Positions 4,996 to 40,006 of a DNA stretch of 64,000 nt are shown one piece after another (position 1 is the first letter of the stretch; each line of letters opens with the position of its first letter). The notes below the pieces were generated by a model, which searched no databases, was not told the origin of the DNA, and saw nothing but the letters and a program-made list of their open reading frames with translations. Source of the DNA: Eledone cirrhosa (Eukaryota); contig OZ024763.1 in assembly GCA_964016885.1 (NCBI GenBank), positions 18,910,001 through 18,974,000 of the forward strand, written 5' to 3'. The translations under genes and the position numbers were made by a program.

Positions 4996-5450
4996 TACGA
5001 TATTAAATAAATGGAAACTATATTTATAAAACCATATTTATTTCATTATATATATTTCAGGGATATCATATTAAAAATATGGTATGCCTTCATCAGACAA
5101 AATACAATATAAACAGTCTTATAAATAGATAGATTTGACATACCTTACAACTTCAACTTCCATTTAAAAAGTTGATTTGGTAAATCAACTTTTTAAATGG
5201 AAGTTGAAGTTGTAAGGTATGTCAAATCTATCTATTTATAAGACTGTTTATATTGTATTTTGTCTGATGAAGGCATACCATATTTTAATATGATATCCCT
5301 GAAATATATATAATGAAATAAATATGGTTTTATAAATATAGTTTCCATTTATTTAATATCGTAAATATACTCCAAATACTTGTTGAGTGCTTTTATATCA
5401 GTTATAAATATTTACTCGTTGTAACCCAACAATTTAAATAAAACTTTGCA
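4996..5450 (+). mobile_element. Fold-back PLE pseudo-LTR-like element, family A (182-bp-arm palindrome plus 3' extension) between (TA)n tracts
   Basis: 4996-5178 is the reverse complement of 5182-5363 (one indel), loop GGT; related pieces at 4934-4978, 5468-5630, 17542-17635. Confidence 0.8.
5251..5324 (+). ncRNA. Type I hammerhead ribozyme (family A), AUA cleavage triplet
   Basis: tattttgt-CTGATGA(5264-70)-AGG..hairpin..CCT-GAAA-TATAT-ATA-atgaaata; mirror copy on minus strand in the left arm. Confidence 0.75.
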
Positions 5451-5512
5451 TATATATATATATATATATTAACAATATTAATAAATGGAAAATATCTTTA
5501 CAAAACCATATT

Positions 5513-5574
5513 TATTTTATTATACGTATTTCAAGGGTACCACCATTTTAGTACGCATTCGTCAGATAAAATAT
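5513..5574 (-). ncRNA. Hammerhead ribozyme, diverged family A copy
   Basis: Minus strand: tattttat-CTGACGA-..GTAC..GTAC..-GAAA-TACGT-ATA-ataaaata; perfect 8-bp stem I, imperfect base of stem II. Confidence 0.65.
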
Positions 5575-5626
5575 ATTTGGTGTTAAGATAGTGACATACC
5601 TTCTTGTGATCTTAATAGTATAAGAC

Positions 5627-5661
<35 letters not shown>

Positions 5662-5677
5662 TGACCCTCCCCAAGTA

Positions 5678-5723
<46 letters not shown>

Positions 5724-5835
5724 TAAGAGGAATTCCAACTTTGTCTGATTTACTCGTTTTATTTACAATCCTTTAAAATTTATAATGGTATTATAATGAA
5801 ATAGTATGATAGAATATTAAATGTTAAGTGTTAAT

Positions 5836-5874
5836 TGAACAAGTACTTTCATGCTTTCGCAATCTTCAGGTTCA
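5836..5874 (-). ncRNA. Minimal type I hammerhead ribozyme (39 nt)
   Basis: Minus strand: TGAAC-CTGAAGA-T-TGC-GAAA-GCA-T-GAA-AGTACT-T-GTTCA; 5-bp stem I, GNRA-capped stem II, palindromic stem III, CUU triplet. Confidence 0.75.
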
Positions 5875-5926
5875 TAATGTGTGGTGACAGTCAAGTTTGC
5901 AATTTTCAACTGTCTATATATATATA

Positions 5927-5958
<32 letters not shown>

Positions 5959-6380
5959 AATATAATGGAAAAATTTGAACAGGGACAAAACAGAGAGGCA
6001 GTACAACGAATGTTTATTAATTTCACGCTCTGGAGAGTGGGGTGTTGGTGGGGGGCAACGTTTCGGGCATAAGCCCTTCCCCAGGTGAAAAGTGTGTGGG
6101 AACAGAGTCCAAAGGGTGTGTAGGGGAGTGGTGGAGAGACGTATAGCGAAAGGAAACGGTGCGAATGAATAAATAAAAAATAAAGATAAAAATAAAAATA
6201 AAGCATGATCAAAATACAAGGAATGAGATAAATTTAAATATAAAGGCATGATCAAAATAAACTGAAATTAAAAGGGGGGTAAACAGGTGATGGAAGGGTG
6301 TGGGGTGTGTAGGGGTGGTGGCGGGTGGAGTGGGAAGAGGGAGACGGGGTGTCCAAGCGGGGAGGGCTGAAGGTGGTGTG

Positions 6381-6438
<58 letters not shown>

Positions 6439-6529
6439 AAAGTAAGGGTTGGGGGAAGAACGGGGTTGCATGTTCAGGAAGAGGTGTGTGTGTGTGTGGG
6501 GGGGGGGGGGGGTCGGAGTGTCTGTGCGT

Positions 6530-9500
6530 GTGTGGTGGTGTTAATGGTGATGGTGGTGGTGTTGGTGGTGGTGATGGTGACGGTTGTGAGAGTGGTGGTG
6601 GTGGTGGTGACAGTTGTGAGGGTGGTGGTGACGGTTGTGAGAGTGGTGGTGGTGGTGGTGACGGTTGTGAGAGTGGTGGTGGTGGTGACGGTTGTGAGAG
6701 TGGTGGTGGTGGTAGTGACGGTTGTGAGAGTGGTGGTGGTGGTAGTGACGGTTGTGAGAGTGGTGGTGGTGGTGGCGGTTGTGAGAGTGGTGGTGGTGGT
6801 GACGGTTGTGAGAGTGGTGGTGGTGGTGGTGACGGTTGTGAGAGTGGTGGTGTTGGTGGTGGTGATGGTGACGGTTGTGAGAGTGGTGGTGGTGACAGTT
6901 GTGAGAGTGGTGGTGGTGGTGACAGTTGTGAGAGTGGTGGTGGTGGTGACGGTTGTGAGAGTGGTGGTGGTGACGGTTGTGAGAGTGGTGGTGGTGGTGA
7001 CAGTTGTGAGAGTGGTGGTGGTGGTGACGGTTGTGAGAGTGGTGGTGGTGACGGTTGTGAGAGTGGTGGTGGTGACGGTTGTAAGAGTGGTGGTGGTGGT
7101 GGTGACAGTTGTGAGAGTGGTGGTGGTGGTGGTGACGGTTGTGAGAGTGGTGGTGGTGGTGGTGGCGGTTGTGAGAGTGGTGGTGGTGGTGGTGACAGTT
7201 GTGAGAGTGGTGGTGGTGGTGACGGTTGTGAGAGTGGTGGTGGTGGTGACGGTTGTGAGAGTGGTGGTGGTGGTGGTGACGGTTGTGAGAGTGGTGGTGG
7301 TGGTGGTGACAGTTGTGAGAGTGATGGTGGTGGTGGTGGTGACGGTTGTGAGAGTGGTGGTGGTGGTGGTGGTGACGGTTGTGAGAGTGATGGTGGTGGT
7401 GGTGACGGTTGTGAGAGTGGTGGTGGTGGTGGTGACAGTTGTGAGAGTGGTGGTGGTGGTGGTGACAGTTGTGAGAGTGGTGGTGGTGACGGTTGTGAGA
7501 GTGATGGTGGTGGTGGTGACGGTTGTGAGAGTGGTGGTGGTGGTGGTGACAGTTGTGAGAGTGGTGGTGGTGGTGACGGTTGTGAGAGTGGTGGTGGTGG
7601 TGACGGTTGTGAGAGTGGTGGTGGTGGTGGTGGTGACGGTTGTGAGAGTGGTGGTGGTGGTGGTGACGGTTGTGAGAGTGGTGGTGGTGGCGGTTGTGAG
7701 AGTGGTGGTGGTGGTGACGGTTGTGAGAGTGGTGGTGGTGGAGGTGGTGACAGTTGTGAGAGTGGTGGTGGTGGTGGTGACGGTTGTGAGAGTGGTGGTG
7801 GTGGTGGTGACGGTTGTGAGAGTGGTGGTGGTGGTGGTGACAGTTGTGAGAGTGGTGGTGGTGGTGACGGTTGTGAGAGTGGTGGTGGTGGTGACGGTTG
7901 TGAGAGTGGTGGTGGTGGTGACGGTTGTGAGAGTGGTGGTGGTGGTGGTGGTGACGGTTGTGAGAGTGGTGGTGGTGACGGTTGTGAGAGTGGTGGTGGT
8001 GGAGGTGGTGACAGTTGTGAGAGTGGTGGTGGTGGTGGTGACGGTTGTGAGAGTGGTGGTGGTGGTGACGGTTGTGAGAGTGGTGGTGGTGGTGGTGGTG
8101 ACAGTTGTGAGAGTGATGGTGGTGGTGGTGACAGTTGTGAGAGTGGTGGTGGTGGTGACAGTTGTGAGAGTGGTGGTGGTGGTGGTGGTAACAGTTGTGA
8201 GAGTGGTGGTGGTGGTGACAGTTGTGAGAGTGGTGGTGGTGGTGGTGGTAACAGTTGTGAGAGTGGTGGTGGTGGTGGTGGTGACAGTTGTGAGAGTGGT
8301 GGTGGTGGTGGTGGTGACAGTTGTGAGAGTGGTGGTGGTGGTGACAGTTGTGAGAGTGGTGGTGGTGGTGGTGACAGTTGTGAGAGTGGTGGTGGTGGTG
8401 ACAGTTGTGAGAGTGGTGGTGGTGGGGGTGACAGTTTTGAGAGTGGTGGTGGTGACGGTTGTGAGAGTGGTGGTAGTGGTGGTGACGGTTGTGAGAGTGG
8501 TGGTGGTGGTGGTGACAGTTGTGAGAGTGGTGGTGGTGGTGACGGTTGTGAGAGTGGTGGTGGTGGTGACGGTTGTGAGAGTGGTGGTGACAGTTGTGAG
8601 TGGTGGTGGTGGTGGTGGTGACAGTTGTGAGAGTGGTGGTGGTGGTGACGGTTGTGAGAGTGGTGGTGACAGTTGTGAGTGGTGGTGGTGGTGGTGGTGA
8701 CAGTTGTGAGAGTGGTGGTGGTGGTGACGGTTGTGAGAGTGGTGGTGGTGACGGTTGTGAGAGTGGTGGTGGTGACAGTTGTGAGAGTGGTGGTGGTGGT
8801 GGTGGTGACGGTTGTGAGAGTGGTGGTGGTGGTGACAGTTGTGAGAGTGGTGGTGGTGGTGGCGGTTGTGAGAGTGGTGGTGGTGGTGACGGTTGTGAGA
8901 GTGGTGGTGGTGGTGGTGACGGTTGTGAGAGTGGTGGTGTTGGTGGTGGTGATGGTGACGGTTGTGAGAGTGGTGGTGGTGACAGTTGTGAGAGTGGTGG
9001 TGGTGGTGACAGTTGTGAGAGTGGTGGTGGTGGTGACGGTTGTGAGAGTGGTGGTTGTGAGAGTGGTGGTGGTGGTGACAGTTGTTAGAGTGGTGGTGGT
9101 GGTGACGGTTGTGAGAGTGGTGGTGGTGACGGTTGTGAGAGTGGTGGTGGTGACGGTTGTGAGAGTGGTGGTGGTGGTGGTGACAGTTGTGAGAGTGGTG
9201 GTGGTGGTGGTGACGGTTGTGAGAGTGGTGGTGGTGGTGGTGGCGGTTGTGAGAGTGGTGGTGGTGGTGGTGACAGTTGTGAGAGTGGTGGTGGTGGTGA
9301 CGGTTGTGAGAGTGGTGGTGGTGGTGACGGTTGTGAGAGTGGTGGTGGTGGTGGTGACGGTTGTGAGAGTGGTGGTGGTGGTGGTGACAGTTGTGAGAGT
9401 GATGGTGGTGGTGGTGGTGACGGTTGTGAGAGTGGTGGTGGTGGTGGTGGTGACGGTTGTGAGAGTGGTGGTGGTGACGGTTGTGAGAGTGGTGGTGGTG

Positions 9501-12500
9501 GTGGTGACGGTTGTGAGAGTGGTGGTGGTGACGGTTGTGAGAGTGGTGGTGGTGGTGGTGACAGTTGTGAGAGTGATGGTGGTGGTGGTGGTGACGGTTG
9601 TGAGAGTGGTGGTGGTGGTGGTGACGGTTGTGAGTGGTGGTGGTGGTGGTGACGGTTGTGAGAGTGGTGGTGGTGGTGACGGTTGTGAGAGTGGTGGTGG
9701 TGGTGGTGGTGACGGTTGTGAGAGTGATGGTGGTGGTGGTGACGGTTGTGAGAGTGGTGGTGGTGGTGGTGACAGTTGTGAGAGTGGTGGTGGTGGTGGT
9801 GACAGTTGTGAGAGTGGTGGTGGTGGTGACGGTTGTGAGAGTGATGGTGGTGGTGGTGACGGTTGTGAGAGTGGTGGTGGTGGTGGTGGTGACAGTTGTG
9901 AGAGTGGTGGTGGTGGTGACGGTTGTGAGAGTGGTGGTGGTGGTGACGGTTGTGAGAGTGGTGGTGGTGGTGGTGGTGACGGTTGTGAGAGTGGTGGTGG
10001 TGGTGGTGACGGTTGTGAGAGTGGTGGTGGTGGCGGTTGTGAGAGTGGTGGTGGTGGTGACGGTTGTGAGAGTGGTGGTGGTGGAGGTGGTGACAGTTGT
10101 GAGAGTGGTGGTGGTGGTGGTGACGGTTGTGAGAGTGGTGGTGGTGGTGGTGACGGTTGTGAGAGTGGTGGTGGTGGTGGTGACAGTTGTGAGAGTGGTG
10201 GTGGTGGTGACGGTTGTGAGAGTGGTGGTGGTGGTGACGGTTGTGAGAGTGGTGGTGGTGGTGGTGGTGACAGTTGTGAGAGTGATGGTGGTGGTGGTGA
10301 CAGTTGTGAGAGTGGTGGTGGTGGTGACAGTTGTGAGAGTGGTGGTGGTGGTGGTGGTAACAGTTGTGAGAGTGGTGGTGGTGGTGACAGTTGTGAGAGT
10401 GGTGGTGGTGGTGGTGGTAACAGTTGTGAGAGTGGTGGTGGTGGTGGTGGTGACAGTTGTGAGAGTGGTGGTGGTGGTGGTGGTGACAGTTGTGAGAGTG
10501 GTGGTGGTGGTGACAGTTGTGAGAGTGGTGGTGGTGGTGGTGACAGTTGTGAGAGTGGTGGTGGTGGTGGTGGTGACGGTTGTGAGAGTGGTGGTGGTGG
10601 TGGTGACAGTTGTGAGAGTGGTGGTGGTGGGGGTGACAGTTTTGAGAGTGGTGGTGGTGACGGTTGTGAGAGTGGTGGTAGTGGTGGTGACGGTTGTGAG
10701 AGTGGTGGTGGTGGTGGTGACAGTTGTGAGAGTGGTGGTGGTGGTGACGGTTGTGAGAGTGGTGGTGGTGGTGACGGTTGTGAGAGTGGTGGTGACAGTT
10801 GTGAGTGGTGGTGGTGGTGGTGGTGACAGTTGTGAGAGTGGTGGTGGTGGTGACGGTTGTGAGAGTGGTGGTGGTGACGGTTGTGAGAGTGGTGGTGGTG
10901 GTGGTGACAGTTGTGAGAGTGGTGGTGGTGGTGGTGGTGACGGTTGTGAGAGTGGTGGTGGTGGTGACAGTTGTGAGAGTGGTGGTGGTGGTGGTGACGG
11001 TTGTGAGAGTGGTGGTGACGGTTGTGAGAGTGGTGGTGGTGGTGACGGTTGTGAGAGTGGTGGTGGTGACGGTTGTGAGAGTGGTGGTGGTGGTGACGAT
11101 TGTGAGAGTGGAGGTGGTGGTGACGGTTGTGAGAGTGGTGGTGGTGGTGGTGGCGGTTGTGAGAGTGGTGGTGGTGACGGTTGTGAGAGTGGTGGTGGTG
11201 GTGGTGACAGTTGTGAGAGTGGTGGTGGTGGTGGTGACGGTTGTGAGAGTGGTGGTGGTGGTGGTGACAGTTGTGAGAGTGGTGGTGGTGGTGGTGGCGG
11301 TTGTGAGGGTGGTGGTGGTGGCGGTTGTGAGAGTGGTGGTGGTGGTGGTGACAGTTGTGAGAGTGGTGGTGGTGGTGGTGGCGGTTGTGAGAGTGGTTGT
11401 GGTGGTGATGGTGACAGTTGTGAGAGTGGTGGTGGTGGTGGTGACGGTTGTGAGAGTGGTGGTGGTGGTGGTGGCGGTTGTGAGAGTGGTGGTGGTGGTG
11501 GTGACGGTTGTGAGAGTGGTGGTGGTGGTGGTGACGGTTGTGAGAATGGTGGTGGTGGTGGTGACGGTTGTGAGAGTGGTGGTGGCGGTGACAGTTGTGA
11601 GAGTGGTGGTGGTGACGGTTGTGAGAGTGGTGGTGGTGGTGGTGACGGTTGTGAGAGTGGTGGTGGTGGTGGTGGCGGTTGTGAGAGTGGTGGTGGTGGT
11701 GACGGTTGTGAGAGTGGTGGTGGTGGTGGTGGTGGTGACAGTTGTGAGAGTGGTGGTGGTGGTGACGGTTGTGAGAGTGGTGGTGGTGGTGACGGTTGTG
11801 AGAGTGGTGGTGGTGGTGACAGTTGTGAGAGTGGTGGTGGTGGTGACAGTTGTGAGAGTGGTGGTGGTGACGGTTGTGAGAGTGGTGGTGGTGGTGGTGG
11901 CGGTTGTGAGAGTGGTGGTGGTGGTGGTGACGGTTGTGAGAGTGATGGTGGTGGTGGTGACAGTTGTGAGAGTAGTGGTGGTGGTGGTGGTGACAGTTGT
12001 GAGAGTGGTGGTGGTGGTGACAGTTGTGAGAGTGATGGTGGTGGTGGTGACGGTTGTGAGAGTGGTGGTGGTGGTGACGGTTGTGAGAGTGGTGGTGGTG
12101 GTGGTGGTGACAGTTGTGAGAGTGGTGGTGGTGGTGGTGACAGTTGTGAGAGTGGTGGTGGTGGTGGTGACAGTTGTGAGAGTGGTGGTGGTGGTGGTGA
12201 CAGTTGTGAGAGTGATGGTGGTGGTGGTGACAGTTGTGAGAGTGGTGGGGCTGGTGGTGACGGTTGTGAGAGTGGTGGTGGTGGTGGTGGTGACAGTTGT
12301 GAGTGGTGGTGGTGGTGGTGACGGTTGTGAGAGTGGTGGTGGTGGTGACAGTTGTGAGAGTGGTGGTGGTGACGGTTGTGAGAGTGGTGGTGGTGGTGGT
12401 GACGGTTGTGAGAGTGGTGGTGGTGGTGGCGGTTGTGAGAGTGGTGGTGGTGGTGACGGTTGTGAGAGTGGTGGTGGTGGTGACAGTTGTGAGAGTGGTG

Positions 12501-15110
12501 GTGGTGGTGACGGTTGTGAGAGTGGTGGTGGTGGTGACGGTTGTGAGAGTGGTGGTGGTGGTGACGGTTCTGAGAGTGGTGGTGGTGGTGACAGTTGTGA
12601 GAGTGGTGGTGGTGGTGACAGTTGTGAGAGTGGTGGTGGTGACGGTTGTGAGAGTGGTGGTGGTGGTGGTGGCGGTTGTGAGAGTGGTGGTGGTGGTGGT
12701 GACGGTTGTGAGAGTGATGGTGGTGGTGGTGACAGTTGTGAGAGTGGTGGTGGTGGTGGTGGTGACAGTTGTGAGAGTGGTGGTGGTGGTGACAGTTGTG
12801 AGAGTGATGGTGGTGGTGGTGACGGTTGTGAGAGTGGTGGTGGTGGTGGTGGTGACAGTTGTGAGAGTGGTGGTGGTGGTGGTGGTGACAGTTGTGAGAG
12901 TGGTGGTGGTGGTGGTGACGGTTGTGAGAGTGGTGGTGGTGGTGGTGGTGACAGTTGTGAGAGTGGTGGTGGTGGTGGTGACGGTTGTGAGAGTGGTGGT
13001 GGTGGTGGTGACGGTTGTGAGAGTGGTGGTGGTGGTGGTGACGGTTGTGAGAGTGGTGGTGGTGGTGGTGGCGGTTGTGAGAGTGGTGGTGGTGGTGACA
13101 GTTGTGAGAGTGGTGGTGGTGGTGGTGACAGTTGTGAGAGTGGTGGTGACAGTTGTGAGAGTGGTGGTGGTGGTGGTGACAGTTGTGAGAGTGGTGGTGG
13201 TGGTGGTGACGGTTGTGAGAGTGGTGGTGGTGGTGACAGTTGTGAGAGTGGTGGTGGTGACGGTTGTGAGAGTGGTGGTGGTGGTGGTGGCGGTTGTGAG
13301 AGTGGTGGTGGTGACGGTTGTGAGAGTGGTGGTGGTGACGGTTGTGAGAGTGGTGGTGGTGGTGACGGTTGTGAGAGTGGTGGTGACGGTTGTGAGAGTG
13401 GTGGTGGTGGTGTGGGGGGGGGGGTGACGGTTGTGAGAGTGGTGGTGGTGGTGACAGTTGTGAGAGTGGTGGTGGTGGTGGTGACAGTTGTGAGAGTGAT
13501 GGTGGTGGTGGTGACAGTTGTGAGAGTGGTGGGGCTGGTTGTGACGGTTGTGAGAGTGGTGGTGGTGGTGGTGGTGACAGTTGTGAGAGTGGTGGTGGTG
13601 GTGACAGTTGTGAGAGTGGTGGTGGTGGTGGTGGTGACAGTTGTGAGAGTGGTGGTGGTGGTGGTGGTGACAGTTGTGAGTGGTGGTGGTGGTGGTGGTG
13701 ACGGTTGTGAGAGTGGTGGTGGTGGTGGTGGCGGTTGTGAGAGTGGTGGTGGTGGCGGTTGTGAGAGTGGTGGTGGTGGTGACGGTTGTGAGAGTGGTGG
13801 TGGTGGTGACGGTTGTGAGAGTGATGGTGGTGGTGGTGACAGTTGTGAGAGTGGTGGGGCTGGTGGTGACGGTTGTGAGAGTGGTGGTGACAGTTGTGAG
13901 AGTGGTGGTGGTGGTGACAGTTGTGAGAGTGGTGGTGGTGGTGGTGGTGACAGTTGTGAGAGTGGTGGTGGTGGTGGTGGTGGTGACGGTTGTGAGGGTG
14001 GTGGTGGTGGTGACAGTTGTGAGAGTGGTGGTGGTGGTGGTGACGGTTGTGAGAGTGGTGGTGGTGGTGACGGTTGTGAGAGTGGTGGTGGTGGCGGTTG
14101 TGAGAGTGGTGGTGGTGGTGACGATTGTGAGAGTGGTGGTGATGGTGACGGTTGTGAGAGTGGTGGTGGTGGTGACAGTTGTGAGAGTGGTGCTGACAGT
14201 TGTGAGAGTGGTGGTGGTGGTGGCGGTTGTGAGAGTGGTGGTGGTGACGGTTGTGAGAGTGGTGGTGGTGGTGGTGGTGACAGTTGTGAGAGTGGTGGTG
14301 GTGGTGGTGACGGTTGTGAGAGTGGTGGTGGTGGTGACGGTTGTGAGAGTGGTGGTGGTGGCGGTTGTGAGAGTGGTGGTGGTGGTGACGATTGTGAGAG
14401 TGGTGGTGATGGTGACGGTTGTGAGAGTGGTGGTGGTGGTGACAGTTGTGAGAGTGGTGCTGACAGTTGTGCGAGTGGTGGTGGTGGTGGCGGTTGTGAG
14501 AATGGTGGTGGTGGTGACGGTTGTGAGAGTGGTGGTGGTGGTGGTGACAGTTGTGAGAGTGGTGGTGGTGGTGGTGGCGGTTGTGAGAGTGGTGGTGATG
14601 GTGACGATTGTGAGAGTGGTGGTGATGGTGACGATTGTGAGAGTGGTGGTGGTGGTGGTGAGAGTTGTGAGAGTGGTGGTGGTGGTGGCGGTTGTGAGAG
14701 TGGTGATGGTGGTGGCGGTTGTGAGAGTGGTGGTGGTGGTGGTGACGGTTGTGAGAGTGGTGGTGGTGGTGGTGACAGTTGTGAGAGTGGTGGTGGTGGT
14801 GGTGGCGGTTGTGAGAGTGGTGGTGGTGGTGGTGACAGTTGTGAGAGTGGTGCTGGTGACGGTTGTGAGAGTGGTGGTGGTGACAGTTGTGAGAGTGGTG
14901 GTGGTGGTGGTGGCGGTTGTGAGAGTGGTGGTGGTGGTGACAGTTGTGAGAGTGGTGGTGGTGACTGTTGTGAGAGTGGTGGTGGTGGTGACAGTTGTGA
15001 GAGTGGTGGTGGTGGTGACGGTTGTGAGAGTGGTGGTGATGGTGGTGACAGTTGTGAGAGTGGTGGTGGTGGTGACAGTTGTGAGAGTGGTGGTGGTGGT
15101 GTTGGTGGAG
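6530..15110. repeat. 8.6-kb minisatellite, unit gacRgttgtgagagt(ggt)n, with higher-order duplications
   Basis: 15-nt core plus variable GGT run repeated several hundred times; produces the GGGGDGCES / poly-Val pseudo-ORFs. Confidence 0.97.
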
Positions 15111-15244
15111 GTTGACCAGATGAAAAAGAAGTGTCGCTTTACTGGTTGCTAGGCGCCGTTACGGTGTGTGGCAATAACTGATCTCCGTACTTGACTGACT
15201 TGTTGTGATGGGAATATTGGATGGGATAAAACACCAACAATAAA

Positions 15245-16169
15245 GATAGACTGACAGACAGACAGATGGAGAGAGAGATAGAGAGACAGACGGATGGAGA
15301 GAGAGACAGACAGAGAGACAGACAGACAGAGAGACAGGCAGATGGACAGAGAGACAGAGAGACAGACGGATGGAGAGAGAGACAGAGAGACAGACAGATG
15401 GAAAGAGAGACAGACAGATGGAGAGAGAGACAGACAGATGGACAGAGAGACAGATAGATGGACAGAGAGACAGAGAGACAGAGAGACAGACAGATGGAGA
15501 GAGAGACAGACAGATGGACAGATAGACAGAGAGACAGACAGATGGACAGAGAGATAGACAGATGGAGAGAGAGAGACAGAGAGACAGACAGATGGACAGA
15601 GAGACAGAGAGACAGACAGATGGAGAGAGAGAGACAGAGAGACAGACTGATGGAGAGAGAGACAGAGAGACAGACAGATGGACAGAGAGACAGAGAGACA
15701 GACAGATGGAGAGAGAGACAGAGAGACAGACAGATGGAGAGAGAGACAGAGAGACAGACGGATGGACAGAGAGACAGAGAGACAGAGAGACAGAGAGACA
15801 GACAGACGGACAGAGAGACAGAGAGACAGAGAGACAGACAGATGGAGAGAGAGACAGAGAGACAGACGGATGGACAGAGAGACAGAGAGACAGAGAGACA
15901 GACAGATGGACAGAGAGATAGAGAGACAGACAGATGGAGAGAGAGAGAGACAGACGGATGGAGAGAGAGACAGACAGAGAGACAGACAGACAGAGAGACA
16001 GACAGACAGAGAGACAGACAGAGAGACAGACAGAGAGACAGACAGACAGACAGACAGAGTCAGACAGATGGACAGAGAGACAGAGAGACAGACAGATGGA
16101 CAGAGAGACAGACAGATGGACAGAGAGACAGAGAGACAGACAGATGGAGAGAGAGACAGATGGAGAGGG

Positions 16170-16220
<51 letters not shown>

Positions 16221-16770
16221 GAGTCAGACAGATGGACAGAGAGACAGAGAGACAGACAGATGGACAGAGAGACAGAGAGACAGACGGATGGACAGAGAGA
16301 CAGAGAGACAGACAGATGGAGAGACAGACAGATTGACAGAGAGACAGACAGATGGACAGAGAGACAGAGAGATGGACAGAGAGACAGACAGATGGAGAGA
16401 GAGACAGATGGACAGAGAGACAGACAGATGGACAGAGAGACAGAGAGACAGACGGATGGACAGATGGACAGAGAGACAGATGGACAGAGAGACAGATGGA
16501 CAGAGAGACAGAGAGACAGAGAGACAGACAGATGGAGAGAGAGACAGACAGATGGACAGAGAGACAGAGAGACAGACGGATGGACAGATGGACAGAGAGA
16601 CAGATGGACAGAGAGACAGATGGACAGAGAGACAGAGAGACAGAGAGACAGACAGATGGAGAGAGAGACAGACAGAGAGACAGATGGAGAGAGAGACAGA
16701 GAGACAGACAGATGGACAGAGAGATAGACAGGCGGACGGATAGAGGGATGGACAGAGAGACAGACGGAAG
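15245..16770. repeat. Compound (GACA)/(GA)/(GATG) microsatellite
   Basis: Direct inspection. Confidence 0.95.
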
Positions 16771-16842
16771 AACAGACGAAAACACACGGACTTGGGGCTT
16801 CTCTATCCCTGTCTCTAGTTTTAGATTATATATATATATATA

Positions 16843-19264: not shown

Positions 19265-20605
19265 ATATGTCTGTGTGTGTATGTGCATGTATGTGTGTGT
19301 GTCTGTGTGTGTGTATGTGTGTGTGTGTGTCTGTGTGTCTGTGTATGTATGTATGTATGTATGTGTCTGTGTGTATGTGTGTGTGTGTGTGTATGTATGT
19401 GTGTGTATGTATGTGTGTATGTATGTGTCTGTGTGTGTGTGTATGTATGTGTGTCTGTGTGTGTATGTGTGTGTATGTGTGTATGTATGTGTGTATGTCT
19501 GTGTGTATGTCTGTGTGTCTGTATGTGTGTGTATGTATGTGTGTGTATGTGTGTGTGTGTCTGTGTGTGTGTGTGTATGTATGTGTGTGTATGTGTGTAT
19601 GTCTGTGTGTCTGTGTGTGTCATCCTTACGGGGTCGATAAAATAAAGTACCAGTAATGCACTGGGATATTTGCTGGCCTTGTGCCAAAAGTAGAAACAAT
19701 TATTAAAAATAGCACACACACAGACAGGCACAGACACACACAGACACACACACACAGATAGGCACAGACACAGACACACAGACACACACAGACACAGACA
19801 GGCACACACACACAGACACACACACAGACACAGACAGGCACACACACACAGACACAGACAGGCACACACACACAGACACAGACAGGCACACACACACAGA
19901 CACACACACAGACACAGACAGGCACACACACACAGACACAGACAGGCACACACACACACACACACACACAGACGCAGACAGGCACACACACACACAGACA
20001 CAGACAGGCACACACACACAGACACAGACAGGCACACACACACAGACACACACACAGACAGGCACACACACACACAGACACACACACAGACACAGACAGG
20101 CACACACACACACAGACACACACACAGACACAGACAGGCACACACACACAGACACATACAGGCACACACAGACACACACACAGACACACATACAGACAGG
20201 CACACACACACAGACACACACACAGACACACACACACACACACACAGACACACACAGACACACACACACAGAGACACATACACAGACACACACACACAGA
20301 GACACACACACACACACAGACACACACACAGACACACACACAGACACACACAGACACACACACGCAGACACACGCAGACACACATACATACACACACATA
20401 CGCATACACAGACACACACAGACACACACACACGCAGACACATAGACACACACAGACACACACACACACATACACACACACAGACACACACACACATACA
20501 CACACAGACACAGACACACACACACACACACACACACAGACACACATACCCACACAGACGCACACAGACATACGCACACACACACAAACACAGACACACA
20601 CACAT
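19265..20605. repeat. TG-rich then CA-rich compound microsatellites flanking a SINE 3' fragment (19621-19705)
   Basis: Direct inspection. Confidence 0.9.
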
Positions 20606-20724: not shown

Positions 20725-21590
20725 TTATCGATAAATAAAGTATCAGTCATTGGGACAGTGTGATCAATAAATAAAGTGTCAGTCTAATATGGAGACAGTG
20801 AGATCGATAAATAAAGTATCAGTCTAATATTGAGACAGTGTGATCGATAAAGTATCAGTGTAATATTGAGGCAGTGTGATCGATAAATAAAGTATCAGTC
20901 TAATATTGAGACAGTGTGATCGATAAAGTCCCAGTCTAATATTGAGACAGTGAGATTGATAAATAAAGTGTCAGTCTACTTTTGAGACAGTGAGATCGAT
21001 AAAGTGTCAGTCTAGTATTGGGACAGTGTGATCGATAAATAAAGTGTCAGTCTAGTATCGGGACAGTGTGATCGATAAAGTGTCAGTCTAGTATTGGGAC
21101 AGTGTGATCGATAAATAAAGTGTCAGTCTAGTATCGGGACAGTGTGATCGATAAAGTGTCAGTCTAATATTGAGGCAGTGTGATCGATAAAGTGTCAGTC
21201 TAATATTGAGACAGTGTGATCAATAAATAAAGTGTCAGTCTAATATTGAGACAGTGAGATCGATAAATAAAGTGTTAGTCTAGTATTGGGACAGAGAGAT
21301 CGATAGTGTCAGTCTAATATTGAGACAGTGTGATCGATAAATAAAGTCCCAGTCTAATATCGAGACAGTGTGATCGATAAAGTGTCAGTCTAATATTGAG
21401 GCAGTGTGATCGATAAAGTGTCAGCCTAATATTGAGACAGTGTGATCAATAAATAAAGTGTCAGTCTAATATTGAGACAGTGAGATCGATAAATAAAGTG
21501 TTAGTCTAATATTGAGACAGTGAGATCGATAAAGCCCCAGTCTAGTATTGGGACAGAGAGATCGATAAATAAACTCCCAGTCTATTGGGG
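20725..21590 (+). repeat. 36/40-bp minisatellite derived from a SINE internal segment
   Basis: Unit gatcgataa(ataa)agtgtcagtctaatattgagacagtgt resembles SINE tcgataaaataaagtaccagt..ctggg; about 22 copies. Confidence 0.85.
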
Positions 21591-23769: not shown

Positions 23770-25003
23770 TTGTTGTTGTTGTTATAGCTGTTTAGCCCTA
23801 GGTCAGGCATAACATGATCAGAACCGTGATTGATGATCTTCTTCTTCTTCTTCTTCTTCTTCAGCCCAAGGTCAGATCTATAGTGGTCAGAACTGTGGCT
23901 GTTGTTGTTGTTTAGCCCTAGGTCAGATCTAAAGTGGTCAGAACTGTTGTTGTTTAGCCTCAGGTCAGATCTAAAGTGGTCAGAACTGTGGCTGTTGTTG
24001 TTGTTTAGCCCAAGGTCAGATCTAAAGTGGTCAGAACTGTGGCTGTTGTTGTTGTTTAGCCCAAGGTCAGATCTAAAGTGGTCAGAACTGTGGCTGTTGT
24101 TGTTGTCTAGCCCTAGGTCAGATCTAAAGTGGTCAGAACTGTGGCTGTTGTTGTTGTTTAGCCCTAGGTCAGATCTAAAGTGGTCAGAACTGTGGCTGTT
24201 GTTGTTGTTTAGCCCTAGGTCAGATCTAAAGTGGTCAGAACTGTTGTTGTTTAGCCTCAGGTCAGATCTAAAGTGGTCAGAACTGTTGTTGTTTAGCCTC
24301 AGGTCAGATCTAAAGTGGTCAGAACTGTGGCTGTTGTTGTTGTTTAGCCCAAGGTCAGATCTAAAGTGGTCAGAACTGTGGCTGTTGTTGTTGTTTAGCC
24401 TCAGGTCAGATCTAAAGTGGTCAGAACTGTGGCTGTTGTTGTTGTTTAGCCCAAGGTCAGATCTAAAGTGGTCAGAACTGTGGCTGTTGTTGTTGTTTAG
24501 CCCTAGGTCAGATCTAAAGTGGTCAGAACTGTGGCTGTTGTTGTTGTTTAGCCCTAGGTCAGATCTAAAGTGGTCAGAACTGTGGCTGTTGTTGTTGTTT
24601 AGCCCTAGGTCAGATCTAAAGTGGTCAGAACTGTGGCTGTTGTTGTTGTTTAGCCCTAGGTCAGATCTAAAGTGGTCAGAACTGTGGCTGTTGTTGTTGT
24701 TTAGCCCTAGGTCAGATCTAAAGTGGTCAGAACTGTGGCTGTTGTTGTTGTATAGCCCTAGGTCAGATCTAAAGTGGTCAGAACTGTTGTTGTTTAGCCT
24801 CAGGTCAGATCTAAAGTGGTCAGAACTGTGGCTGTTGTTGTTGTTTAGCCCTAGGTCAGATCTAAAGTGGTCAGAACTGTGGCTGTTGTTGTTGTTTAGC
24901 CCTAGGTCAGATCTAAAGTGGTCAGAACTGTGGCTGTTGTTGTTGTATAGCCCTAGGTCAGATCTAAAGTGGTCAGAACTGTTGTTGTTTAGCCTCAGGT
25001 CAG
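23770..25003. repeat. 51/42-bp minisatellite (~24 near-identical units)
   Basis: Unit (gtt)n-tagccctaggtcagatctaaagtggtcagaactgtggct; short variant lacks 9 nt and carries cctcagg. Confidence 0.95.
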
Positions 25004-31662: not shown

Positions 31663-31699
<37 letters not shown>

Positions 31700-32185: not shown

Positions 32186-32275
32186 TATATATATATATGT
32201 GTGTGTGTGAATGAAGTAATTCCGTCGGAAAAGTCCAGGAAAAAAGAGTGCTCTATGTAGGTAACAGAGCTTAAT

Positions 32276-32516: not shown

Positions 32517-32575
<59 letters not shown>

Positions 32576-32651
32576 TGTAATAAACAACATATGTTGATTT
32601 AAAACTGAACTGATTTAAAAGTGTTTTTTAACCTTCATATCATGTCTTCCT

Positions 32652-32721
32652 GTTTTATCTGATGAAAACACAAATATTATTGCATGATGATATTTGTTTT
32701 TGAAATGCGCATAATAAAATA
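32652..32721 (+). ncRNA. Type I hammerhead ribozyme (family D), AUA triplet
   Basis: ttttat-CTGATGA(32659-65)-AAAcACAAATAT..ATATTTGTTTTT-GAAA-TGCGC-ATA-ataaaa. Confidence 0.8.
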
Positions 32722-32751
32722 CATGGAACTCTTTTAACCATCTTTTGTTCT

Positions 32752-32794
<43 letters not shown>

Positions 32795-32930
32795 GTGAGT
32801 TTTATTGTAGCACAATAAAGCAATGCAAATATCGGATATAATTGTTTCTACTTTTGGCACAAGGCCAGCAATTATCCCAGTGTATTACTGGTACTTTATT
32901 TTATCGACCCCGTAAGGATGTATAAATAAT

Positions 32931-33195
32931 ATGGTTAAAAGAGTTCCATGTATTATATTATGCGCATTTCAAAAACAAATATCATCATGGGATGATATTT
33001 GCGTTCTCATCAGATAAAATAGGGAGACATGATATGAAGTTTAAAAAAGACTTGCGAGCAGTGAAGTGTTAAATCTACATATGATATGTCTCCCTATTTT
33101 ATCTGATGAGAACGCAAATATCATCCCATGATGATATTTGTTTTTGAAATGCGCATAATAAAATACATGGAACTCTTTTAACCATCTTTTGATCT

Positions 33196-33200
<5 letters not shown>
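32931..33200. mobile_element. Family D fold-back element with two inverted hammerheads (32950-33022 minus; 33095-33165 plus)
   Basis: About 32931-33030 is the reverse complement of 33087-33186; CTGATGA at 33103 (+) and 33007-33013 (-). Confidence 0.85.
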
Positions 33201-33254
<54 letters not shown>

Positions 33255-34015: not shown

Positions 34016-34048
<33 letters not shown>

Positions 34049-34699
34049 CTGTGTGTGTTTGAGTGTGTGTCTGTTTGTGTGTCTGTCTGTGTGTGTCTGT
34101 GTGTTTGTGTGTGTGTCTGTGTCTGTCTGTGTGTGTGTATGTGTGTGTGTGTGTGAGTGTGTGTGTGAGTGTCTGTGTGTGTGTGTGTCTGTGTGTGTCT
34201 GTGTGTCTACAGAATAGTAAATTATTGACATAAAACTAAAAATAGATTCAATATTCCATTCTCCGCCCTCCCCACCATGTCTGTCTACAGTCTTAACAGA
34301 CAGAACTCTCTGTCACTGATTAAAGCTGAGACACTCACCACCAATTTGTTACACTACACCACCACCACACCACCACAGAGCAACACACTACACCACCACA
34401 GAACACACACTACACCACACACTACACTACACCACCATCACCACAGAACACCACACCACCACCACACTACAATACAACAAACCACACCACCACCACAGTA
34501 CACCACTCTACACCACACCACACCACACCATACTTCACATCACATCACCACACCACCACACCACATCTCACCACAACGCCATACAGCACCTCACAACACC
34601 AGACGACATCACACCACACACTACCACACCAAACTCTACCACACGACACATCACAACAACACACCATTAGAGGACTGTTTAAAGCTAAGACCTACATAC

Positions 34700-35180
34700 C
34701 CCACTAGAGCACAAGACCACCAGACGACCTGACCACCAGGCAACCAAACCACCAGACGACCTGACCAGCAGACAACCAAACCACCAGACGACGTGACCAC
34801 CAGACCACCTGATCACCAGTCCACCTGACCACGAGACCACCGGACCACCTGACCATCAAACGACCTGACCACCAAACCACCAGACCACTTGACCACAGAA
34901 CCACCAAACCACAAGACCACCTGAACACCAGACCACCAGACCGTCAGCCGACCTGACCACCAGAACACCAAACCACCAGACCATCTGACGACCTGTCCAC
35001 CAAACGACTTGACCACCAGAATACCAAACCACCAGACCATCAGACGACCTGACCACCAAACGACCTGACCACCAGATCACAAGACCACCAGACAACCTGG
35101 CCTTCAGACACCCTGACCACCAAACGACCTGATCACCAGACCACCTGACCACCAGACCAGACGACATGACCATCAGACGT
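34700..35180. repeat. Degenerate ~15-25-bp tandem repeat (accaccagacgacctg)
   Basis: Direct inspection. Confidence 0.85.
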
Positions 35181-35329
35181 ACTAAGATCAGCACAACTGG
35201 AGTCTCCTCACTGACGTTAGTTTCAATCATTTAATAAAGACATATTTTATCCACCAGTTTTCTAGATAAATCTATAACACCGCCCCATCTTTCTCTCTTA
35301 TTAACTCAATCAATTACTCTCTGTGAGCC

Positions 35330-35360
<31 letters not shown>

Positions 35361-36292
35361 ATGTATGTATGTATGTATGTATGTATGTATGTATGTATGT
35401 ATGTATGTATGTATATCTATATGTGTATGTATGAAGCATCTATATCTATCTATCTATATATGTATATATATATAATTGTTTCTACTATTGGCACAAGGCC
35501 AGAAATTACCCAGTACATTACTGGTACTTTATTTTATCGACCCCGTAAGGATGAAAGGCAAAGTTAACCTCGGCGGGATTTGAACTCAGAATGGCAAGGG
35601 CCGTAACTCTATGCGTCAAAGCATGGTGTCCGAATATATATATAATGTATATATATATAATGTATATATATATATATATAATGTATATATATATAATGAA
35701 TATATATATATAATGTATATATATATATATAATGTATATATATATATAATGTATATATATATAATGTATATATATATATAATGTATATATATATAATGAA
35801 TATATATATATAATGTATATATATATAATGTATATATATATAATGTATATATATATAATGTATATATATATAATGTATATATATATAATGTATATATGTA
35901 TATATATATAATGTATATATGTATATATATATAATGTATATATATATATATATATAATGTATATATATATAATGTATATATGTATATATATATAATGTAT
36001 ATATGTATATATATATAATGTATATATATATAATGTATATATGTATATATATATAATGTATATATGTATATATATATAATGTATATATGTATATATATAT
36101 AATGTATATATATATAATGTATATATGTATATATATATAATGTATATATGTATATATATATATATGTATATATATATGTATATATGTGTGCGTGTCTACC
36201 CGACTGCTTGTTTATGTGAGTACGTATATATATATATATACATACATACATATGTGTGTGTGTGTGTCTACGTATATATATCTATATGTATG

Positions 36293-36325
<33 letters not shown>

Positions 36326-36673
36326 ATGTTTATATATATATATACATATATATGTCGTCTAACAAAACGTTCATTGACACCACAACTAAAGGTTTAATCA
36401 ATAAATACACCCAACACAGTAGCTCTGTGGCTGTCAGTACAGGGTGACCCCCCCCCAGCCATCCAGACCTGGCATCCACCGTCCGTTTATGTAAACAGCA
36501 CAATGAGGGGTGGGTGGATGTTAGCAGGGGTAGACACAAGGAAGGACACATATATGCATACAAACATATATATATGTATGCATACAAACATATATATATA
36601 TTTATATGTATATATATGATTATATGTATGCATATATATATTATATATATATGTATATATATATATAAATATG

Positions 36674-36860
36674 GGCGGTGGATTGGCAGTATCGGTAGAG
36701 GGTCGGACGCCATGCTTTCCAGCATAGTTACGTCCCTTTACGATCTGAGTTCAAATCCCGCCGAGGTTAACTTTGCCTTTCATCCTTACGGGGTCGATAA
36801 AATAAAGTACCAGCAATGTACTGGGTAATTGCTGGCCTTGTGCCTAAAGTAGAAACAATT
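36674..36860 (+). mobile_element. Major SINE, full copy (other copies 35475-35632 -, 39148-39325 -, 53500-53710 +)
   Basis: Near-identical to 23441-23630. Confidence 0.9.
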
Positions 36861-36960
36861 ATATATATATATATATATATAGAAGTGGTTACACAACAGT
36901 TAGTTCACCATACCGAGGACAATTATTTCACCTTAGCGGATCCGAAGCAAAATTACAGGC

Positions 36961-37383
36961 ACCAATAACACCTTCAACCTGAAATCGAGAGCCTACCCTC
37001 CTAAGGTAACTGAACTTGCTCCTTTCGAGGCGAACCTTCTTGACTTAGTCGTTAACATTTCCTTTCGCAAACACCCAAACATCTTTCAAACTAAACTCAG
37101 AAATGACATTAAGAAATTTAGGTCTTCTAATAACACTTTCGTTCTTTCCGACAAAACTAATAATATTTACGAAGTCGACAACACCACTTTCCGCCACCTG
37201 GCCCATAACGCTATTACTTCCAAATATAAGAAAGCTAACCCTATGGCCTACCACGACATTAATACTGAAGCCAAAGAACTTGGTGCCGCCCTTAAGGTAG
37301 ATAAGAACCTACAATCTCTAGCTAAGCGGGAGGCGTTCCTGACCCTGAAAGATCACAAGGTAGACTTTACTTCTAACCCCACA
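36961..37383 (+). pseudogene. Penelope-like reverse transcriptase N-terminal region (141 stop-free codons, missed by ORF track)
   Basis: FNLKSRAYPPKVTELAPFEANLLDLVVNISFR..FQTKLRNDIK..VLSDKTNNIYEV..ITSKYKKA..INTEAK..AFLTLKDHKVDFTSNPT; DKT corresponds to the PLE DKG motif, LKDHK..P to RT motif 1. Confidence 0.85.
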
Positions 37384-37386
37384 GAT

Positions 37387-37429
37387 TACGAGCTGAGGAT
37401 CCGGTAAGGTGAAACTATTGTTCTGCGTA
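37387..37429 (+). ncRNA. Minimal hammerhead ribozyme in PLE pLTR
   Basis: TACG-AG-CTGAGGA-T-CC-ggtaa-GG-T-GAAAC-tatt-GTT-CT-g-CGTA. Confidence 0.65.
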
Positions 37430-37519
37430 TGGCGAACTAACTGTTGTGTAACCACTTCTACCTAACTCGTCCCATGGGCTGTGCTCTACCACTACGGATA
37501 TTACCTTCCAGTGTTCTAC

Positions 37520-37553
<34 letters not shown>

Positions 37554-37561
<8 letters not shown>

Positions 37562-37789
37562 ATACTTTGGGAGGGTCATGTTGCCAATAAGAAACACACG
37601 CACCAGTTGCTTTCACTTCAATTTATTATATATTTATAAATTTATAAATTTACAAATTTACAAACTTATAAATTTCTGGTTGGTTGGTTGGTTGGTATAT
37701 TGGCAACATGACCCTCCCAAAGTATAACAATATCGGTTTCAACACACGATTTCAGATAAAGAATCTTGCTAAACAAATTCAGAAACGAA

Positions 37790-37790
<1 letters not shown>
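37554..37790. mobile_element. Family J element with 36-bp inverted repeat, in (TA)n
   Basis: atattgttatactttgggagggtcatgttgccaata at ~37554-37589 and its reverse complement at ~37698-37733; related pieces at 26530-26660 and 5660-5682. Confidence 0.65.
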
Positions 37791-37831
<41 letters not shown>

Positions 37832-37997
37832 CATAAATCATGTCTATAGAATTATTAGATAAATAAAATATATATCTAATAATTCTATAGACATGATTTA
37901 TGATATATTGGTCTGATTATTTAATTTATTAATTCTTCATAGAGCCACAAAGTGACCGGTTGCAACATATATAACTTTATGTATATGTAAACCTTTA

Positions 37998-38040
<43 letters not shown>

Positions 38041-38259
38041 GTATTTGTATGTATGTATGAATATATTATATATATATATATGTATTTGTATGTATGTATG
38101 AATATATTATATATATATATGTATGTATTATATACATTGTATATGTTATACATATTGTGTATAAACCATTGCATAATACCACAGCTGCAAGCAGGATTTT
38201 TACAGAAACAATCGTTATGCAATAAATTAATGTTATACTGAAGCATTCAACGGTTACTT

Positions 38260-38314
<55 letters not shown>

Positions 38315-38323
<9 letters not shown>

Positions 38324-38730
38324 TAAACGGAATAGAAAATGCTGACAAATTGTTCACAGTTAAAAATAGTTTAATTAGGAATAAGTGAGAATTAGTAATA
38401 GTATTGGTTAGTATTCAGTATTGGTTTTAAGTTTTACCGGTTGCGCATTTCTAATGCTTTTCAAACATAATTTTGAGATAGAGCGTCCGTGATATTTGTT
38501 CAGATCAGAACAAACATCACGGACGCTCTATCTCAAAATTATGTTTGAAAAGCATTAGAAATGCGCAACCGGTAAAACTTAAAACCAATACTGAATACTA
38601 ACCAATACTATTACTAATTCTCACTTATTCCTAATTAAACTATTTTTCACTGTGAACAATTTGTCAGCATTTTCTATTCCGTTTACCAATATATCATAAC
38701 TTGTGTGTTACACCTCTATTCTTTTAAATA
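38315..38730 (+). mobile_element. Family F fold-back element (~187-bp arms)
   Basis: 38315-38501 is the reverse complement of 38508-38694 with few mismatches; apex agatca; (TA)n both sides. Confidence 0.85.
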
Positions 38731-38749
38731 TATATATATATATATATAT

Positions 38750-38965
38750 CTTGGACGATCGACTTTCGTCAAATCGGACCGAGGGAACAATGTTTCCGTT
38801 GGTCTTTCCAATTGCTAATACTATCTATCGGTCGCAACTCCAGGTAGAAGGAGCAATGTGAAATAAAGTGTCTTGCTCAAGGACATAACGCATCGCCTGG
38901 TCCAGGAATCGAACTCACATCCTTACGATTGCGAATCCAATTCTCTAACCACTCAGCCACACGCC
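38750..38965 (-). mobile_element. Second tRNA-derived SINE family
   Basis: Minus strand A-box tggctgagtgg, B-box gagttcgattc, then tgtccttgagcaagacact typical of SINE central domains. Confidence 0.85.
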
Positions 38966-38969
38966 TTCA

Positions 38970-39057
<88 letters not shown>

Positions 39058-39584
39058 TATATAGTTACTGTAGGTTCACCAGAGTGACCACTCAATCCGT
39101 AGTTTCCAGTAAGTATAGAGGTGTAGTACTAAGCAGAGTGTAATGACAGTTTCTACTACTTTAGGCACAAGGCCAGCAATTATCCCAGTACATTACTGGT
39201 ACTTTATTTTATCGACCCCATAAGGATGAAAGACAAAGTTAACCTCGGCGGAATTTGAACTCAGAGTGGCGTAAGTATGGGTCAAAGCATAGCCTCCCAC
39301 CCTCTACCGATACTGCCAATCCACCGGCCGCTATTTGCAAATAATGCTCAAATGAAGTGCACAGACACAGACACAGACACACACACACGCACAGACACAC
39401 ACACACACACACATATATATATATGTATAAAGGAAAAGTTAAAAAACAATAACAAGGAGTACAGTTACGAAAAGTGTTTGGTATTAGGTTCACGCTTGAG
39501 AGTGGGGGCTGGGGGACGACGTTTCGGGCATAAACCCTTCATCAGGAGAAAAGTGTGAAGAAAAAGAGTTCCGAGAGGGTGTGA

Positions 39585-39635
<51 letters not shown>

Positions 39636-39649
39636 TATATATATATATA

Positions 39650-40006
39650 TGTAGGAGGTGAGTTTTATTGTAGTACAATAAAGCAATGCAGATATCGGAT
39701 AAGAAGCACTCTACAGTTTGTAGGACTGGAGTATAAATAATATATAAGATCAAAAGATGGTTAAAAGAGTTCCATGTATTTTATTATGCGCATTTCAAAA
39801 ACAAATATCATCATGAGATGACATTTGCGTTTTCGTCAGATAAAATAGGGATACATGATATGAAGGTTAAAAAACACTTGTGAATAGTGAAGTTTTAAAT
39901 CAACATATGTTGATATGTTGATTTAAAACTTCACTATTCACAAGTGTTTTTGAAATGCGCATAATAAAATACATGGAACTCTTTTAACCATCTTTTGATC
40001 TTATAT

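Follow-up and report, generated by a model that had tools for sequence, protein, structure and literature searches.

Short-helix-III hammerhead motifs near the 3' end of putative Penelope-like elements in Eledone cirrhosa, with a double hammerhead as the predicted cutting form

Introduction

In a 64,000-nucleotide (nt) stretch of the Eledone cirrhosa genome (assembly GCA_964016885.1, contig OZ024763.1, positions 18,910,001 to 18,974,000 of the forward strand), motifs of the type I hammerhead ribozyme recur on both strands, with a helix III of two base pairs around a loop that differs between families. The whole stretch is called the window here, and positions are counted from its first letter. 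The question raised by this locus is why the loop of helix III should change its sequence and still remain able to pair with itself. A preliminary description of the window took this as the signature of hammerheads that cleave as dimers; it added that selection had maintained dimer catalysis, and that this would imply tandem or multimeric transcripts. By combining the window with copies elsewhere in the genome and with the element that carries them, we arrived at a reading that we hold to be very probable: these are type I hammerhead motifs near the 3' end of Penelope-like elements, and a helix III that pairs two copies into a double hammerhead is the predicted cutting form.

Results

One hammerhead frame is shared by families A and D. 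Both strands of the window were scanned for CTGANGA, and the places cited in the preliminary description were read directly. Seven window copies share the frame TATTTTRT-CTGAYGA, then a stem II hairpin of 26-36 nt, then GAAA-T-NNNN-A-TA-ATRAAATA, as had been proposed for these two families. The last 8 nt of the frame (ATRAAATA) are complementary to its first 8 (TATTTTRT), and the segments are arranged as in a type I hammerhead: the 5' strand of helix I, C3-A9, helix II, G12-A14, helix III, U16.1-H17 and the 3' strand of helix I. The full core (CUGAYGA, GAAA, A15.1-U16.1, U15.2-A16.2 and H17 = A) is present in 7/7 copies, helix I is paired at 7-8 of its 8 positions, and helix III consists of A15.1-U16.1 and U15.2-A16.2 round a tetraloop and nothing more.

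Family A is represented by a plus-strand motif at 5256-5320 with the loop ATAT (GAAA at 5301-5304, TATATA at 5305-5310; full core, helix I 8/8) and by its inverted twin on the minus strand at 5039-5104, also with the loop ATAT; the arms 5074-5178 and 5182-5286 are 100% complementary. A motif of subfamily A2 with the loop ACGT lies on the minus strand at 5513-5573 (TACGTA at 5523-5528), its tail continuing to about 5450, and the tail of a further A2-type copy occupies 4913-4996 on the plus strand, 90% complementary to 5450-5533; by eye, CTGA and then (TA)n stand at its hammerhead's place. Four family D motifs carry the loop GCGC: 32651-32721 (plus; TGCGCA at 32706), 32951-33021 (minus; helix I paired at 7/8), 33095-33165 (plus; TGCGCA at 33150, tail ending in (TA)n from about 33200) and 39777-39847 (minus). 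The head-to-head partner upstream of the last copy is, as judged by eye, without the 5' half of its hammerhead, and at about 39850-39960 this partner appears broken between short T-rich repeats.

Two further families are present. A second-family motif at 5834-5878 on the minus strand has CTGAAGA, a stem II of UUGC-GAAA-GCAU and the helix III AGTACT, that is, 2 bp and a 2-nt loop. At 45835-45919 on the plus strand, beyond the range of the preliminary description, a hammerhead-like motif has a 10-nt palindromic helix III, ACTAATTAGT. Its core reads CTAATGA, with G5 replaced by A, and failed the core test; it is a damaged copy. All motif positions cited previously are correct (TATATA at 5305, TACGTA at 5523-5528 on the minus strand, TGCGCA at 32706 and 33150, AGTACT ending at 5842 on the minus strand, and ACTAATTAGT at 45903), but the list of copies was incomplete, lacking the minus-strand motifs at 5039-5104 (ATAT), 32951-33021 (GCGC) and 39777-39847 (GCGC), the last of which sets the end of its range.

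The alignment supports the hammerhead fold. For it, 46 distinct copies were drawn from the window and from other loci of the genome; they were partly hand-picked for stem II diversity and include one copy from a mismatch list. The catalytic core is invariant at its 11 positions in 46/46 copies, N7 being U or C and H17 being A, and A15.1-U16.1 and U15.2-A16.2 are likewise kept in 46/46. With the hammerhead structure imposed, 94.3% of the cells pair (helix I 98.1%, helix II 89.2%, helix III 100%), against 33-57% with the partners slid; the covariation score of 0.402, compared with 0.06-0.19 when slid, was reached by 0 of 500 shuffles. In helix II (stem II), double-sided changes are found at 8 of the 9 pairs. 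Helix I varies only by A-U/G.U exchange, which bears out the swaps of G-U for A-U reported earlier for stem I. The outer loop pair is AU in 33 copies, GC in 10, GU in 1 and other in 2, and the inner pair is UG in 16, CG in 14, UA in 14 and other in 2. Because stem II covaries so strongly, the hammerhead fold is real and well supported, with catalysis as a prediction from it.

Two features of the alignment stand apart from pairing. At the fourth position of stem II (alignment columns 19 and 48; for example, window positions 5274 and 5298), a near-invariant C faces C or U in all subfamilies, and this conserved pyrimidine-pyrimidine mismatch may be a site of tertiary contact or protein contact. 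Moreover, helix I and the helix III flanks (columns 1-8 and 64-71) are conserved in sequence across families whose open reading frames (ORFs) are only 54% identical, which hints at a second constraint, e.g., recognition by the element's own protein.

The loop of helix III points to a constraint on RNA. The pattern TCTGAYGAN{20,40}GAAATNNNNATAAT was searched in the 3.0-Gb genome, with the same pattern read backwards as the control. It gave at least 75,371 matches, against 8 for the control, and therefore the frame is more than a chance arrangement; the frame of the second family (AGTACT) gave at least 7,047 matches, against 0 for its reversed pattern. Counts for these large families are lower bounds, and the loop counts that follow hold only inside the frame fixed by the pattern.

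Numbering the tetraloop L1 to L4, the inner pair L2-L3 is TA in 22,274 of the 75,371 matches, CG in 22,968, TG in 28,510, CA in 602 and other in 1,017, and the outer pair L1-L4 is A..T in 50,737, G..C in 22,985, G..T in 592, A..C in 511 and other in 546. When G.U pairs are allowed, at least 72,695 tetraloops (96.4%) are self-complementary, and 43,593 to 45,242 (58-60%) are strict DNA palindromes. The loop does vary between element lineages (ATAT, ATGT, ACGT, GCGC) and stays self-complementary in this sense, but not always as a strict DNA palindrome: the central T-G loops, about 38% of the total, are no DNA palindromes and are self-complementary solely as RNA, through tandem U.G pairs. Among the first 100 matches listed, counted by eye, GCGC occurs 36 times, ATGT 30, ATAT 25, ACGT 2, GTAT 1 and GTGC 1, and five loops are unable to self-pair (ACGC twice, ATGC, AGGT and ATCT).

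The switch of the outer pair from A-U to G-C goes together with the inner pair, as G..C (22,985) nearly equals inner CG (22,968), and A..T (50,737) nearly equals inner TA and TG together (50,784). The four amplified loop states are joined by single pair-keeping transitions, from ATAT through ATGT and ACGT to GCGC by way of (GCGT), and the inner complementarity of L2 and L3 is kept in 97.9% of the genome copies. Amplification has brought the U.G inner state to 28,510 copies, and the lineages concerned differ in their stem II and tail sequences. Its mirror, the C.A state, is found in 602 scattered copies, mostly GCAC and ACAT, which is a background level and was never amplified. Because central U.G was amplified and central C.A never was, the constraint on the loop points to RNA rather than DNA.

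At the level of single copies no such preference is seen. In dead copies, transitions that keep the pair are roughly as rare as those that break it, with G..T at 592 and A..C at 511, and with GTGC at 499 and GCAC at about 430 (GCAC accounts for 72 of 100 matches listed, by eye, scaled to 602). Selection on the loop of each copy is rejected by these figures. The copies drift neutrally, and the constraint would have applied to the few active source elements; the selection proposed in the preliminary description would hold for those sources and not for the copies in the window.

Predicted pairing energies favor two strands over one. The monomer hairpin with its 2-bp helix III is predicted at +4.7 kcal/mol and would be unstable alone. 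In-register 8-nt self-duplexes are predicted at -3.2 kcal/mol for AUAU, -2.2 for AUGU, -6.5 for ACGU and -10.5 for GCGC, as against +0.4 for ACAU. For whole family D motifs, RNAcofold returned the double-hammerhead pairing, e.g., -46.1 kcal/mol versus 2 x -16.4. The predicted minimum-energy structure of family A dimers is not the double-hammerhead form, because the sequence is very AU-rich. These energies fit the published dimer model for hammerheads with a short helix III (PMC4209133).

Based on this model, two RNAs, or two motifs on one partial-tandem transcript, would pair through the 8-nt segment from A15.1 to U16.1. With such pairing, helix III would be stable at each active site and cleavage after A17 would become possible. 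The constraint would have acted on transcribed source elements, and the window copies would be dead insertion products of these, drifting neutrally.

Could the motifs instead cut as monomers, with the 2-bp helix III and tetraloop sufficing in the presence of tertiary contacts, and with a loop self-complementarity inherited from few founders rather than selected? In the available text of PMC7229834, invertebrate retrozyme hammerheads with 2 bp and a tetraloop are reported to self-cleave efficiently as single motifs, and the existence of only four major loop types, linked by single transitions, together with neutral decay at the copy level, would be expected of founder inheritance. However, L2 and L3 are neighbors that cannot pair within one hairpin, so that their complementarity is sensible only between two strands, and it is nevertheless found at the frequency given above. 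All four amplified loops are self-complementary, against 36 of 256 tetramers by chance (enumeration); two further families have other palindromes (AGTACT and ACTAATTAGT); and the positive energy of the monomer hairpin also speaks against cutting by one strand. We therefore regard the monomer explanation as unlikely.

The carrier element has a predicted telomerase-like reverse transcriptase. The loci of six of the wider divergent hammerhead pairs were examined. In one of them (L031), a minus-strand hammerhead at 536 is followed by an 821-codon ORF at 1329-3791 (plus) and by a plus-strand hammerhead at 4851-4921; the 3' end of this element (about 300 nt, by a repeated ORF) recurs inverted upstream. 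A second locus (L033) has an ORF at 4115-2418 (minus) and a minus-strand hammerhead at about 539. The hammerhead thus lies about 1-1.9 kb downstream of an ORF predicted to have a telomerase-like reverse-transcriptase (RT) fold.

With five element ORFs, Pfam yielded no family when E was limited to 0.01, and raising the limit to 10 brought up nothing of relevance. The 821-aa ORF has homologues with E values down to 1e-105; Pfam RVT_1 appeared, below cut-off, in 2 of 14 aligned homologues, and a profile of the 14 compared with PDB sequences returned nothing relevant. An AlphaFold (AF2) model built from the homologue alignment reached a predicted local distance difference test score (pLDDT) of 78 and a predicted template modeling score (pTM) of 0.70. 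Its top Foldseek match is the Candida TERT 6zdq_A (E 5.5e-8), with more TERTs among the top matches and then other RTs. By eye, the ORF also contains an IYRDD motif, an LIY...YFG motif and a C-terminal CxC...C...HC motif. According to this structural model, the 821-aa protein would be closest to a telomerase-like RT. Because it combines such an RT with the Cys/His and LIY...YFG motifs, an inverted 5'-truncated copy and a hammerhead near the 3' end, the carrier bears the marks given for endonuclease-bearing Penelope-like elements (PMC8557442).

Insertions are 5'-truncated and often inverted. Positions 4990-5369 hold a head-to-head pair of 5'-truncated family A ends joined at about 5180, whose arms match at 100% over 105 nt and at 99% over 87 nt. 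Each end is about 190 nt long and comprises an upstream part, the hammerhead and the tail, and the palindrome is flanked on both sides by tails of two older A2 copies. The perfect inverted pair at 5074-5286 would fold into a long RNA hairpin if transcribed through. A microRNA (miRNA) reading of the same segment was rejected: the best match, MIR6140, reached 86.9 bits where the gathering score is 140, and the sub-threshold hits, to various miRNA families of plants and animals, are artefacts produced by this palindrome with its 190-nt arms. In family D, inverted-repeat comparison revealed a chain of three ends at 32619-33188 in the order + - + (tail to tail, then head to head), with arms 32619-32744 versus 32928-33053 (126 nt, 91%) and 32928-33030 versus 33086-33188 (103 nt, 98%). 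The same + - + chain occurs at a locus elsewhere in the genome (L055).

The first 100 matches listed include, by eye, 24 divergent (-,+) pairs 143 to 5,060 bp apart, which make up 48 of the 100, and only twice same-strand hammerheads at a spacing of about 3.3-3.9 kb; two sense hammerheads on one transcript would be expected only in this rarer arrangement. We also considered retrozymes, in which tandem units give circular RNA, and rejected them here, as same-strand neighbors 300-450 nt apart are split by an inverted copy; no unit flanked by two sense hammerheads was found among these neighbors. For the 3' flank, 62 hammerhead copies from the window and loci L001-L062 were tested, and (TA)5 or longer within 150 nt was found downstream of 49/62 copies and upstream of 12/62. 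In these copies the distance from the hammerhead end to (TA)n falls into two classes, of about 24-59 nt and about 111-139 nt; either the 3' end may have two alternative positions, or the tail may be longer in certain families.

The insertion form is therefore 5'-truncated, often head-to-head inverted and ending in (TA)n, as in Penelope-like elements. Because the local copies are inverted (head to head, tail to tail) and 5'-truncated, the DNA of the window does not imply multimeric sense transcripts, and this part of the preliminary description finds no support here, the copies moreover decaying neutrally.

An alternative, which would also account for the twin head-to-head insertions, is that the fold is kept mainly as a non-catalytic RNA signal: the self-complementary helix III would dimerize the template RNAs, two of them in an RT-endonuclease particle that is itself dimeric, and cleavage would be dispensable. 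In the available text of Frangieh et al. 2024 (PMC11167929), hammerhead mutants had no effect on insertion in vitro for one element, RNA sequencing (RNA-seq) gave no reads ending where that biochemically studied element would be cut, and the element protein is predicted to be a dimer cutting both DNA strands. The head-to-head pairs, which hold about half of the first 100 matches listed (by eye), and the helix I and core sequences kept across families with ORFs only 54% identical would also agree with a signal. However, the invariance of 11/11 catalytic core positions across lineages is needless for a pure dimerization signal, and the inverted pairs are joined not at helix III but some 40-90 nt upstream of the hammerhead; a complementary DNA (cDNA) template switch at the helix III duplex is rejected on the same ground. 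This explanation is, in our estimate, rather improbable. We attach equally little credence to its boldest form, in which helix III would be above all an RNA-RNA dimerization element bringing two templates into one RT-endonuclease particle, where both cut DNA ends would be primed together and head-to-head twins would result, the U.G-tolerant and C.A-intolerant loop recording pairing in vivo.

It is highly improbable that the palindrome is a DNA-level feature (a site recognized by a protein, or a side effect of targeting the (TA)n microsatellite) and not a matter of RNA pairing: although the commonest family A helix III, ATATATAT, equals (TA)4, the elements target (TA)n and one copy has (TA)n at the hammerhead's place (4913-4931, by eye), the 28,510 central T-G loops (ATGT in 30 of the first 100 matches listed) pair as RNA and form no DNA palindromes, the central C-A mirror state (602) was never amplified, and loops reading GCGC or ACGT have no relation to (TA)n.

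Other features of the window lie apart from the hammerheads. An 8.5-kb minisatellite at 6563-15101 contains about 300 copies of a 30-nt unit, GTGGTGGTGGTGGTGACGGTTGTGAGA, and is open in several reading frames; the excess of G over C in the window is due to this array. More arrays are located at 15244-16777, 19713-20604, 20727-21584 (40-nt unit) and 23863-24989 (51-nt unit). A long ORF at 56957-59032 on the plus strand has a YADD-type motif (by eye) and likely encodes the RT of a different retrotransposon resembling long interspersed nuclear elements (LINE-like). A run of 200 N is found at 51892-52091 and may be an assembly gap.

Discussion

According to the above-described analysis, the helix III loop changed in steps that kept its pairing as RNA, and a double hammerhead is the form in which the motifs would most probably cut. 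Several observations weigh against this reading. Rfam gave no hammerhead match over the whole window at the gathering threshold, nor at E up to 10 on 4900-6000, 33080-33180 and 5815-5895; the matches obtained were sub-threshold miRNA families and chance small nucleolar RNA (snoRNA) or small RNA (sRNA) hits only. With Rfam silent, it is the motif itself that has to carry the case. As aligned, the first pair of stem II is AU in 29, GU in 13, GC in 2 and other in 2 of the 46 copies, so that A-U or G.U (42/46) stands where the accessible text of PMC4209133 has a highly conserved G10.1-C11.1. The asymmetry between U.G and C.A reflects a handful of amplification events, not 28,510 independent ones. 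The minimal Penelope hammerheads described in the same text cleave poorly in vitro, dimers included, and the retrozyme monomers and the results of Frangieh et al. mentioned above count on the same side. On the protein side, the GIY-YIG endonuclease is weakly supported (Pfam below cut-off, 2/14 homologues, best E 0.0055), and a single-sequence AlphaFold model of the C-terminal 142 residues, with a pLDDT of 37.8, was unusable; the nearest ESM Atlas clusters have GIY-YIG in 26-50% of their members, which is a lead only.

Three points give this locus a wider meaning. With upwards of 80,000 copies, several lineages and four amplified loop states linked by pair-preserving steps, nature offers an unusually large data set on a pairing idea that is published but poorly tested. 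The current hammerhead models of Rfam miss this abundant class entirely. In addition, the asymmetry of the U.G and C.A counts names the exact loop mutants of interest. Beyond these three points, the results amount to ordinary repeat annotation.

Comparison with known systems

Forster and colleagues (cited in PMC4209133) reportedly described in 1988 the double hammerhead of newt satellite 2 and avocado sunblotch viroid, in which a weak helix III is said to let two motifs pair into two active sites. The newt and viroid motifs belong to tandem satellite repeats or rolling-circle multimers, whereas the present ones are dispersed, mostly inverted retrotransposon ends.

With the metazoan retrozymes without long terminal repeats (non-LTR), as presented in the available parts of PMC7229834 and Li et al. 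2026 (bioRxiv 10.64898/2026.07.22.740005), the copies share type I hammerheads and the character of abundant AT-rich non-coding animal repeats, and retrozymes are considered to be derived from the pseudo-LTRs of Penelope elements. However, a retrozyme consists of units of 170-400 bp repeated directly in tandem, from which circular RNAs arise, whereas the window and locus L055 alternate as + - +.

The endonuclease-positive (EN+) Penelope-like elements, for which the accessible text of Craig et al. 2021 (PMC8557442) reports inverted 5'-truncated copies, tails and a (TA)n bias, resemble ours in the inverted 5'-truncated copy beside the full copy, the tail past the repeat, the (TA)n bias and the 3' hammerhead, while the C-terminal endonuclease is only weakly recognized here. 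For cephalopods, a search of the literature on hammerheads of Penelope elements turned up this paper alone.

The closest match is with the hammerheads of Cervera and de la Pena 2014 (PMC4209133). In the available text, helix III of type I hammerheads in metazoans is usually 1-2 bp long and has a palindromic loop of 2-4 nt, and the motifs are proposed to fold as active dimers; those in the pseudo-LTRs of Penelope elements have a long helix II and fall into many families with compensatory changes. Some of them lie about 3 kb apart round the RT ORF and others on opposite strands at a distance of 100-700 bp, but most are truncated copies standing singly. The present motifs are likewise of type I, with a long helix II and a short palindromic helix III, located 3' of a Penelope-type ORF, and show the same opposite-strand pairs, tandems at about 3 kb, mostly truncated single elements and many families with compensatory changes. 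They differ in copy number (at least 75,371 plus 7,047, against the 2,000-9,000 quoted there), in the pyrimidine-pyrimidine mismatch kept at the fourth position of stem II and in a helix I of 8 bp. The published combination of a highly conserved G10.1-C11.1 with an unpaired base between 9 and 10.1 is not the rule here; with the first base of stem II read as bulged, the second pair would be AU in 29, GC in 11 and GU in 4 copies. Loops with a central U.G, 38% here, are not mentioned in the available text of that paper, whose supplementary figures may show related motifs. The short palindromic helix III, the action as dimers and the opposite-strand pairs are thus already in print (PMC4209133), and the differences observed in Eledone cirrhosa are differences of degree.

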